Below, piece by piece: positions 46,589 to 48,127 of a DNA stretch of 64,000 bases; position 1 is the first letter of the stretch; each line of letters starts with the position of its first letter. A program made the translations under genes and the position numbers. The stretch lies in sequence record OZ035772.1, one strand, 5' to 3'. The notes beneath the pieces are model-generated. The model did no database searches and was not told where the DNA came from. It saw only the letters and a list, made by a program, of their open reading frames with translations. The DNA is from Felixounavirus LF82P3.

Positions 46589-48127
46589 ACGTCTATCGAA
46601 TCCTTATACAATCCCTTTCCAGAATCTTATCAGACCTTAAAAGCAATAACTCTATAGTCTACTCTATAACCTCTTATCAAATCAACTTAAATAAAAGCCA
46701 ATAACCCCCAGAAAGGGGATGGCCCATTTAAACGCTCTATAAAGCTCTATAACAGCCTTATCAACCTAACTTAAGGGATTGCATTAACCTATCTTAAAAA
46801 GCTCTTTACAGGGCTTTATAGAGGCTTAAAAGAATCTTATAAGGGTGTAAGCTTATAGGCTGGTTAGTATCTTGTGAATGGTTAAACAACCCCCTTGCTA
46901 GTCACTAAAAAGCATGTTATAGGGGCTATAAAGTTACTTTGAAGTAGTTTAAAAGTTACGTAAAAGAGGCTATAAAGTTACGTAAATGCTAGCCCCCTTA
47001 ACATTCTCTTAACAATTTCTTAACAATCCCTACATAGTTATGCTTTTAAGGCACTTGTTAGCAACTTGTTAGTCCCTTGTTAAATCTCTGTTAAGACCAC
47101 GTAAAAGCCTTGTAAGAACCTTTGACATAGCCTTAAAAGCTCCTGTAAAGCCCTATAAAGAGCTATCTGTACAGTTGGGGGGTAAATACTAGGAAGAGAC
47201 TTAAAAGAGCTTACAAGGAGCTATAGAGGGCTTTTAAGAGGTATGTTTAAAGAATCACTAAGAAGCAAAGGGAACGATAAGAAAGAGATAGTGACCATGT
47301 TAATAGCTTGTTAAAAAGATTAAACACTTGTTAGAAACTTGTTAATTATCTTAACAAAATAACTCTTAACATTTAACTACTTAGCTCTTGTTAGTCATCT
47401 GTTAAGATTCTGTAAAGACTATTCAGCACTTGTTAGAAATCTGTTACAGCCTTGTTAGTTCTGTTAAGAATCTGTTAAGACCTTTGAAGAGTTGTTAAGA
47501 AGATGTTAGAACTGTTAAGAGATTGTTAAGGATATTTTAAAATTTTGCAAAGTACTTGTAAGGGAGCTGTTAAGGGCTACCAAGCAGATATACATCCTAA
47601 TCAGATATTTTTGAGTTCCTTCAAAGACCCTAAAAAATGACTTGATAGTCCTATTTTATAAAAATTTTAAGATTCTGAATAATTACCTATACAGCCTTTT
47701 AAAAATACAGGTAGAAACAGGCTTATAAGATGCCTTGTTAGTACCGTGTTAGACCTTGTGAGATAAGGTCTGTAAAGATATTCCTGTTAAGTTTGTTAAA
47801 ACAGTCTATATAGAGGCTTAGTAATACCTAGTGAACACCTATAGAGGGTATCATAGCTGACCTAGAGATTAAGAGGTGTATAGGGGCTTCTAAGAAGGTG
47901 TAGAGAGATGGTTAAGGTGATTGTATAGGTTGTTAAGAAGGCTTGTTAGAAGAGTGTTTAGAAGGGCTATACAGAGGGGCTATTAAGACCACTAGATAGT
48001 TACTAAGATACTATATAGTACTATATAACTATATAGAGAGTAAGATTAAGAAGGTTGTTAAGAAGGATAGATATTTTATTCACATATGATGGTGACCCAG
48101 AGGTTGGGACAACCGATAAAATTTTAT
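46589..48127. repeat. ~1.5 kb ORF-free region dense in short degenerate repeats (CTTAAAAG/CTATAAAG/CTTATAAG, then phased yTGTTAAG array about 47050..47580, then CTATATAG/CTATAGAG)
   Basis: No ORF of 60 aa or more on either strand; TGTTA(A/G) copies recur at about 9-12 bp spacing; inverted ttaacaa copies at the left edge. Confidence 0.7.

Follow-up and report, generated by a model that had tools for sequence, protein, structure and literature searches.

A phased array of short repeats in the predicted direct terminal repeat of Felixounavirus LF82P3 and related phages

Background

Toward the right of the 64,000-nucleotide stretch of Felixounavirus LF82P3 DNA analysed here (sequence record OZ035772.1, one strand, 5' to 3'; henceforth the window) lies an interval of about 1.5 kb, at positions 46589-48127, which lacks any sizeable open reading frame (ORF) and is filled with short repeated motifs. 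This raises the question of what a tightly packed phage genome does with such a stretch. A preliminary description, made from the letters of the DNA, had recognized three sub-blocks of short repeats with helical spacing between apparently convergent transcription units, and had offered a replication origin, a partition or packaging site, or an anchor for a phage DNA-binding protein as possible roles. Here we show that the central block is very probably the direct terminal repeat (DTR) of the virion chromosome, that it carries about 29 copies of a TGTTA motif in a conserved helical register, and that its two borders are inverted copies of a single element. We then consider what such an architecture might do in the formation of the chromosome ends, and weigh the competing explanations.

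Results and discussion

The central block corresponds to the terminal repeats of related phages

Sequence searches with the interval placed the window in the genus Felixounavirus: 255 phage records match it, of which 193 cover at least 80% of the query, with identities of up to 94.7%. A more sensitive search revealed that the records of several relatives begin at about position 404 of the query or end at about 972-991. Three records, namely those of HP1 (vB_CbrM_HP1, OK539913), I14.1 and CRP22, have 100% identical copies of this segment at both ends, measuring 570, 581 and 579 bp respectively, and in all three the left border of the terminal copy maps to window position 46992 and the right border to 47581. 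Likewise, nucleotides 1-581 of vB_EcoM-Pr103Blw (MW481326; henceforth Pr103Blw), which are annotated as a 'short direct terminal repeat', align to the whole of 46992-47581. The repeats of all four phages begin with GCCCCCTTAACATT and end with TGTTAAGGGCTACC, and the window is identical to them at both 46992 and 47581. Over the full 590 bp the Felix O1-like DTRs show 79-91% identity to the window and occupy the same position between the same gene clusters; the record of Erwinia phage Hena2 also starts at the homologous boundary. Published analyses of the termini agree with this picture: PhageTerm indicated DTR packaging with two 581-bp repeats in Pr103Blw (PMC8303462), a PhageTerm-derived DTR was given in the announcement of I14.1, and direct repeats at both termini were described in the HP1 paper.

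Based on its homology to the repeats at both ends of these four records, we conclude that the 590-bp central block (46992-47581) is very probably the DTR, with the physical ends of the virion DNA meeting in the gene-free 1.5 kb. The window shows it only once, collapsed into one internal copy, since the record was opened at another point. That the region is a DTR is already known for the genus. A packaging site had been among the options listed in the preliminary description, which had missed the DTR and the genome ends themselves. A headful pac site of the P22/SPP1 type does not fit, the ends of the relatives being exact and identical to the nucleotide. We did not use as evidence a 127-bp 'repeat_region' annotated at both ends of the PC79-13 record, which is too short for a DTR and appears to be an assembly overlap, the record being labelled circular.

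Several further records touch on this region. The draft or partial Salmonella phage contigs KC139528.1, KC139543.1, KC139640.1, JX181814.1/JX181816.1 and MG969405.1 end inside it or within about 400 bp of it, the last base of MG969405.1 mapping to window position 47579; such ends are consistent with assemblies breaking at or near chromosome ends. In IMG/VR the left-boundary sequence retrieved 14 loci, mostly copies of isolate genomes, whose locus coordinates do not show contig ends. A Felix O1-type terminal region with 89% identity is also present at 135420-137011 of the 147-kb record of 'Staphylococcus phage SA1' (GU169904.1), which suggests from the sequence that this record is a chimeric or contaminated assembly. 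Finally, PP892526.1 (I14.1) carries the taxonomy Tequintavirus in its record and is a Felixounavirus by sequence.

A short motif is arrayed on one face of the helix

The motif that dominates the DTR has the core TGTTA. This pentamer occurs 28 times in the interval as against 3.0±1.7 times (maximum 10) in dinucleotide-preserving shuffles, and TGTTAR occurs 26 times as against 1.9 in such shuffles. When the window is divided into 1-kb bins, the bin at 47-48 kb holds 25 copies of TGTTAR and every other bin at most 4. The DTR itself contains about 29 sites in total. The 24 direct ones, of the form TGT(T/A)A(A/G/C) (TGTWAV), make up an array on the + strand at 47056-47573, and the remaining five are inverted copies of TGTTA. 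Three inverted copies of the form CTTAACA, on the - strand, lie 11 bp apart just inside the left boundary (46997-47025, with starts at 46997, 47008 and 47019), where the preliminary description had placed inverted copies. It had also counted over 25 copies of yTGTTA(A/G)G at 47050-47580; the strict consensus is found only 8 times there and 11 times in the whole interval, and the claim stands for the looser TGTTA/TGTAA core.

Of 32 gaps between motifs 14 measure 11 bp, the most frequent value, and gaps of 9, 20-22 and 33 bp come next. Locally, therefore, the direct sites are 11 bp apart; overall they keep a register of 10.40 bp, for which R=0.74 over the 512 bp spanned by the 24 sites, the 99.9th percentile of the best R attained by random positions being 0.62. 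All the sites fall on one face of B-DNA because steps of 9, 20 and 31 bp correct the local 11-bp steps. Fourier analysis gave a concordant result, with a peak at 10.375 bp in the DTR whose power of 10.9 exceeds both the 3.7 reached at most by shuffles and the 7.3 reached at most in the rest of the window. Each of the three blocks has a peak between 10.4 and 11.6 bp that was reached by no shuffle. The helical phasing is stronger than had been claimed earlier, motif density and spacing lie far beyond those of shuffled sequence, and the three sub-blocks can be given exact borders, namely 46589-46991, 46992-47581 and 47582-48127.

One element recurs in inverse orientation at the two boundaries

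The left boundary element, TA/GCCCCCTTAACA (46990-47003, the slash marking the predicted end), is the point at which four relatives' records start, and would place the first base of the virion left end at 46992. The right boundary element, CTGTTAAGGGCTACC/ (47567-47581), coincides with the record ends of HP1, I14.1 and CRP22, and would place the last base of the virion right end at 47581. Read inward, the left end begins 5'-GCCCCCTTAACA and the right end, on the bottom strand, 5'-GGTAGCCCTTAACA; the two boundaries are thus inverted copies of one element, GCCC(CC)TTAACA, with 5-8 nt separating the boundary from a motif copy on either side. The boundary sequences TAGCCCCCTTAACA and TGTTAAGGGCTACC/AAGCAGATATACA are nearly invariant in seven sequences from three genera and are identical in the window. 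A single sequence departs from this pattern: in the Citrobacter phage Mordin the boundary motif copies each differ by one substitution (left TTTACA, right TGTTTA; window positions 46998-47003 and 47569-47574), and Mordin's genus-mate HP1 has the consensus at both. Coincidence, an error in sequencing or a paired change could each lie behind this double substitution.

The alignment of the same seven sequences also delineates a nearly invariant DTR core of 80 bp (47284-47365), which includes a dyad TTGTTAA-TTATC-TTAACAA at 47339-47357 and has a conservation of 0.94 in the 47300-47349 bin. At 46886-46902, which is about 100 bp upstream of where the DTR starts on the left, the sequence AACAACCCCCTTGCTAGTC resembles the border element CCCCCTTAACATTC, and as judged by this resemblance may be a degenerate or ancestral second boundary.

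Phase and motif are conserved across genera

The same phase recurs in 12 relatives from three genera, with periods of 10.35-10.45 bp and R values of 0.68-0.82. Relative to the window, the insertions and deletions (indels) of these phages are of 1 bp or of 11 or 21-23 bp, with 14 single-base indels in the DTR alone. In the four most divergent sequences, conservation is 0.91 at motif positions as against 0.72 at the other positions of the DTR, a contrast that none of 5000 permutations reached. Furthermore, identity to Mooglevirus HP1 over aligned bases is 0.85-0.87 for the DTR and the two flanks, as against 0.68-0.77 for four neighbouring genes. This non-coding region is under stronger constraint than the neighbouring genes.

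The three inverted CTTAACA copies are retained in all aligned relatives and also in the Erwinia phage Hena2 (Kolesnikvirus), for which BLAST aligns only about 85 nt. Hena2 nevertheless keeps the layout, in which direct arrays of TGTTAAG come after three inverted copies at 11-bp distances. In its right-end flank beside the DTR a different phased motif, (T)CTTCTAAG/CTTCTAAAC, takes over, often at 11-bp intervals, and the DTR motif TGTTAAG is unchanged; going by this comparison, the flank motif appears to evolve faster than that of the DTR. The earlier reading of the interval as DNA of a protein-bound type has held up, in that the sequence is constrained and is neither junk nor coding.

The interval is free of genes and walled by terminators

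The interval contains a single ORF of at least 30 aa, a 31-aa frame with a TTG start at 47545-47640, which straddles the DTR boundary; the absence of any ORF of 60 aa or more over about 1.5 kb, as stated in the preliminary description, is thereby borne out. The longest stop-free run is 46 codons, as against 79 in shuffles, and period-3 power is 0.2-0.4 across the interval, as against 2-8 in coding windows. A scan of 46000-48600 against Rfam at permissive thresholds gave nothing credible, the sole match being Phe_leader on a terminator (24.8 bits as against a gathering threshold of 55, E=0.34). A scan of the interval for sigma-70 promoters gave 10 matches, all weak, as against 6.1±2.5 expected by chance. 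Over the 1539 bp we found no Chi site, no GATC and only one loose match to the DnaA box TT[AT]TNCACA.

On the left the interval is bordered by a Rho-independent terminator of the + strand at 46564-46588, with the stem AGCCCC...GGGGCT (46564-46583) followed by a T-run. It closes the + strand gene cluster, which comprises rIIA and rIIB at 35-38.6 kb and then small ORFs, and runs toward the right chromosome end. On the right, following the stop of the ORF that ends at 48170, a second Rho-independent terminator on the - strand (48161-48136, a 10-pair stem and a T-run) closes the - strand cluster, which starts from 48170 and runs toward the left chromosome end. The homologous sites are annotated as terminators in ASO1A and Mordin. 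The terminator at the end of the + strand genes and the - strand gene end at 48170 had both been recognized in the preliminary description, to which the second terminator is now added. Its 'convergent transcription units' describe correctly the orientation of the genes in the record, and not a biological convergence: each cluster runs to a chromosome end, and the two look convergent because the record was opened elsewhere than at those ends.

None of the ten flanking ORFs has a Pfam domain, and in PHROGs they fall only into families of unknown function, with no DNA-binding, Rep, Par or terminase protein recognized among them in either database. PDB sequence searches with the two nearest larger flanking ORFs returned no match. 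No phage RNA polymerase was found among the 10 largest ORFs of the window, which were the ones scanned.

The left flank (46589-46991) is an untranslated unique stretch of 403 bp adjoining the right-end copy of the DTR. It has repeats of its own (CTCTATA, CTTATCA, CTATAAAG and CTTAAAAG), a Fourier peak at 11.1 bp with a power of 7.5 as against a shuffle maximum of 3.95, and a GC hairpin at 46704-46720. The right flank (47582-48127), an untranslated unique stretch of 546 bp that adjoins the left-end copy, contains the TAAGAAGG and CTATATAG families and seven further direct TGTTA sites (eight by the looser TGTWAV). Its Fourier peak is at 11.6 bp with a power of 5.7, reached by no shuffle, and its conservation is 0.81-0.96 per 50-bp bin. 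Within it, at 48000-48049, TACTATATAG is repeated about three times in tandem. This TA-rich segment is the least stable 50-mer of the window, with a nearest-neighbour dG of -49.7 as against a window mean of -64.0±3.3, and has a conservation of 0.95; the least stable 100-mer, at 47980-48079, encloses it. Judged by this instability it is a possible DNA-unwinding element.

A proposed role in the formation of chromosome ends

We consider it probable that the interval is the concatemer-junction (terminal) region of a Felix O1-like myovirus that packages unit-length DNA with DTRs. The more specific proposal that the TGTTA array is a platform for terminase or for terminus generation is suggested by its layout, and we advance it tentatively, as a plausible candidate. 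In such a scheme the terminators on both sides would keep the junction free of transcription, and the roughly 29 TGTTA(A/G) sites would be bound by a phage protein, most plausibly the small subunit of terminase or a partner of it. With 24 direct sites facing the same side of a helix of 10.4 bp per turn, and five in inverted orientation, the bound protein might coat or bend the DTR and position a nuclease at both boundary elements. Since these are the same sequence in opposite orientation, a single site-specific nicking activity could act on opposite strands, its cuts lying 590 bp apart. The ensuing strand-displacement synthesis would copy the repeat a second time, leaving both daughter genomes with a full DTR. 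Nicking followed by duplication of the repeat through strand displacement is the classical model for the processing of T7-type concatemers.

A number of points weigh against this proposal or the evidence behind it. The termini were mapped in relatives and not in reads of the LF82P3 phage itself. The predicted binding protein was not found among the ten flanking ORFs in the Pfam and PHROGs searches or, for two of them, in the PDB search, and the terminase genes lie outside the window. The most easily melted DNA of the window is in the right flank, which fits an origin equally well. As to the conservation, the relatives share ancestry and their common phase is therefore not a set of 12 independent observations, alignments of repeats tend to pair motif with motif and so somewhat inflate the contrast between motif and spacer, the 11-bp indels could reflect slippage of repeat units and not selection for phase, and the 10.4-bp register is weaker in Hena2 (R=0.55).

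Among well-studied phages the T7 junction offers the closest set of likenesses and differences. In the T7 record the terminal repeat measures 160 bp and is the same at both ends, and CCTAAAG occurs in and beside it as 13 exact heptamers. As in the window, the repeat lies in untranslated DNA with one short motif arrayed on both sides and DNA is packaged in unit lengths, and hence in T7 and the Felix O1-like phages alike the repeat must be duplicated. The T7 heptamer arrays were reportedly named SRL and SRR by Dunn and Studier in 1983. However, CCTAAAG has no homology to TGTTA(A/G), and the T7 array has R=0.75 at 13.2 bp as against R=0.28 at 10.4 bp. The promoters A0, phiOL, A1-A3 and phiOR run through or out of the T7 junction, whereas that of the window is walled by terminators and has promoter-like matches at about the chance level. 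The DTR of the window is also 3.7 times longer than the T7 repeat. In T3 and T7 the recognition sequences for packaging have been mapped to within 5% of the ends (PMC3276506).

Other known systems resemble the array in part. The T5 left terminal repeat includes a large untranslated region rich in repeats and palindromes, conserved in 25 T5-like phages and acting in cis as the injection stop (bioRxiv 10.1101/866236). That repeat is about 10 kb long with genes and 8 DnaA boxes, as against the gene-free 590 bp of the DTR in the window. Phased short sites beside a cut are found in SPP1 pacL and pacR, which are bound by G1P, and in the lambda cosB R-sites with IHF, where DNA may be wrapped or bent on an oligomeric small terminase. 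These comprise 3-5 boxes over about 100-200 bp, as against about 29 over 590 bp here. SPP1 has headful packaging with permuted ends and lambda has cohesive ends, and neither makes exact direct terminal repeats. Iteron origins, such as lambda ori and P1 oriR/incA, have a few repeats of 17-22 bp adjacent to the gene for their own initiator. They are similar in having phased direct repeats beside an easily melted AT-rich segment, and differ in that here the cores are of 6-8 bp, the copies number about 30, no initiator gene is recognized and the borders are those of the DTR.

Alternative explanations

This likeness to iteron origins underlies the alternative that fares best, namely that the region is or contains a replication origin, in which the phased repeats would be iterons and 48000-48049 an unwinding element near the left end of the chromosome. 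Consistent with it, the phased direct-repeat arrays adjoin the TA-rich tandem, which is both the least stable 50-mer of the window (and lies in its least stable 100-mer) and 95% conserved. The T7 record, moreover, annotates phiOL and phiOR, which are secondary origins of T7, at 405 and 39229, near its ends. Against it, the repeat borders match the DTR boundaries exactly and not an origin-like module, the core of 6-8 bp in an 11-bp unit is far shorter than classical iterons of 17-22 bp, and neither more than one loose DnaA-box match nor an initiator-like gene among the ten flanking ORFs was detected. The replication genes, furthermore, lie at 8-18 kb around the AT-rich segment 13355-13582, a better-placed candidate for an origin, where cumulative GC-skew has its minimum. 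The cumulative GC-skew suggested as a check in the preliminary description does turn at 47-48 kb; however, this maximum simply tracks the change of gene orientation there and says nothing of an origin. On balance we consider an origin in the interval unlikely.

A bolder variant would merge these functions. The 24 same-face sites, the five inverted copies and the central dyad might together form a phage 'telomere' nucleoprotein complex, in which polymerisation of a phage protein along the DTR would give a straight, one-sided filament. The complex would flag the concatemer junction so that staggered nicks are made at both of the inverted boundary elements, protect or pair the ends, and prime replication from the TA-rich unwinding element. 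If true, a single machine would couple end formation, end protection and initiation; we know of no description of such a coupled telomere machine in any DTR phage, and we regard its existence here as speculative and quite unlikely.

A third alternative is that the array controls ejection or entry of the DNA in the manner of the T5 injection stop, the phased sites of the leading DNA binding a host or virion protein, which would pause transfer or shield the end from exonucleases. The repeats do lie in and beside a terminal repeat, as in T5, and both gene clusters point outward, with the result that no gene could be read at once from the entering end. Yet the T5 signal is built on 8 DnaA boxes, of which the 1539 bp of the interval offer one loose match, and end formation, not ejection, accounts for the inversion of the boundary elements. 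No report of two-step transfer in Felix O1-like myoviruses turned up, though no search was dedicated to it. Such a role for the array is in our view very unlikely.

The repeats might also be devoid of any sequence-specific function, representing microsatellite-like 11-bp DNA generated by slippage and tolerated in an untranslated terminal region that serves only as homology for concatemer formation. Whole units of 11 or 22 bp do account for indels among the relatives, and the stop codons carried by the motif would trivially explain the absence of ORFs. Slippage does not account for a region whose conservation between genera exceeds that of four adjacent protein genes, or for motif bases that surpass the spacers in conservation to a degree seen in 0 of 5000 permutations. 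Nor does it account for a long-range 10.4-bp register that is maintained although the local spacings are 9, 11 and 20 bp, or for the persistence of motif and layout in Erwinia phages in which the remaining sequence no longer aligns. We therefore hold this explanation to be highly improbable.

Least probable of all is that small proteins or a non-coding RNA are made from the interval, as the ORFs of 30-40 codons annotated in RAST-based records might imply (one in ULIM3, six in pEC-M719-6WT.1), given the absence of a period-3 signal, the 14 single-base, frame-breaking indels among relatives in the DTR, the position of the lone ORF across the DTR border, the lack of any Rfam match with E<0.3, the 10 promoter-like matches where 6.1±2.5 are expected, and the curated annotations of ASO1A, Mordin and Felix O1, which leave the region empty; the possibility of expressed small proteins, which the preliminary description had named as fatal to its own reading, is thus answered.

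Two further candidates were rejected. A partition site of the parS/sopC type, which had been among the earlier suggestions, is unsupported, as no par genes were recognized among the ten flanking ORFs by Pfam or PHROGs, Felix O1 has been described as a lytic phage (PMC3185647), and reports on related genomes found no lysogeny genes (HP1 paper; PMC8303462). A CRISPR-like array does not apply, the units being of 11 bp without spacers and no cas genes being recognized in the flanks.

Other features of the window

The AT-rich intergenic segment at 13355-13582 separates two divergent units, the DNA polymerase gene (10625-13354, - strand) and a + strand operon with primase/helicase. Besides the minimum of cumulative GC-skew, it contains the second least stable duplex of the window, two TTGACA boxes, several copies of (A)CTTAAAAG and a 27-nt near-palindrome at 13466-13520, and from these contents it is a candidate early-promoter or origin region. 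The octamer CTTAAAAG has 21 sites on the + strand, for example at 13433, 13479, 13566, 32622, 38577, 45548, 56226 and 56288, and also at 46636, 46825, 47132 and 47200. It apparently is often intergenic and is present in both flanks and in the DTR. It resembles parts of a 57-bp intergenic repeat reported for Felix O1 (PMC3185647), and may be a genome-wide regulatory motif.

GATC is absent from the entire window (1-64000), as against about 226 occurrences expected from base composition, and CGCG, CCGG, GCGC and GGCC are depleted 3-10 fold, suggesting that Dam, MboI-type and other restriction targets are strongly avoided. A gene for a Ro60-like RNA-binding protein (56783-58198) is situated directly upstream of 26 tRNA genes (58364-63582); the PhageMaP preprint on Bas63 speculates that some such 'tRNAs' are Y-RNA-like partners of the Ro60-like protein.

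Implications

The region and its repeats are undescribed in the genome papers on Felix O1 (PMC3185647), wV8 and VpaE1, and the text of the PhageMaP study of Bas63, which used 2-4 guides per gene, reports nothing on it. The papers that report a DTR (on Pr103Blw, PMC8303462; I14.1; and HP1) give its length, and not the internal array or the symmetry of the boundaries. Neither the one-face array nor the indels in whole turns nor the inversion of the boundary elements seems to have been described before.

Salmonella typing, biocontrol and therapy all make wide use of Felix O1-like phages, and most of the roughly 250 deposited genomes of these phages have been opened at arbitrary points, with the result that this region sits in them as an unexplained internal gap. 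Recognizing it as the chromosome ends fixes the correct start of the genome, and accounts for those draft contigs and records of relatives that begin or end in or near it. For those who engineer these phages it indicates which 1.5 kb to keep intact, and points to a possible cis-acting packaging cassette. More generally, how DTR phages recognize the junction and duplicate the repeat is poorly understood outside T7 and T3. The architecture described here predicts that insertions of half a helical turn in the array would be harmful and that those of a full turn would be tolerated, and the protein that reads the array can be sought directly.

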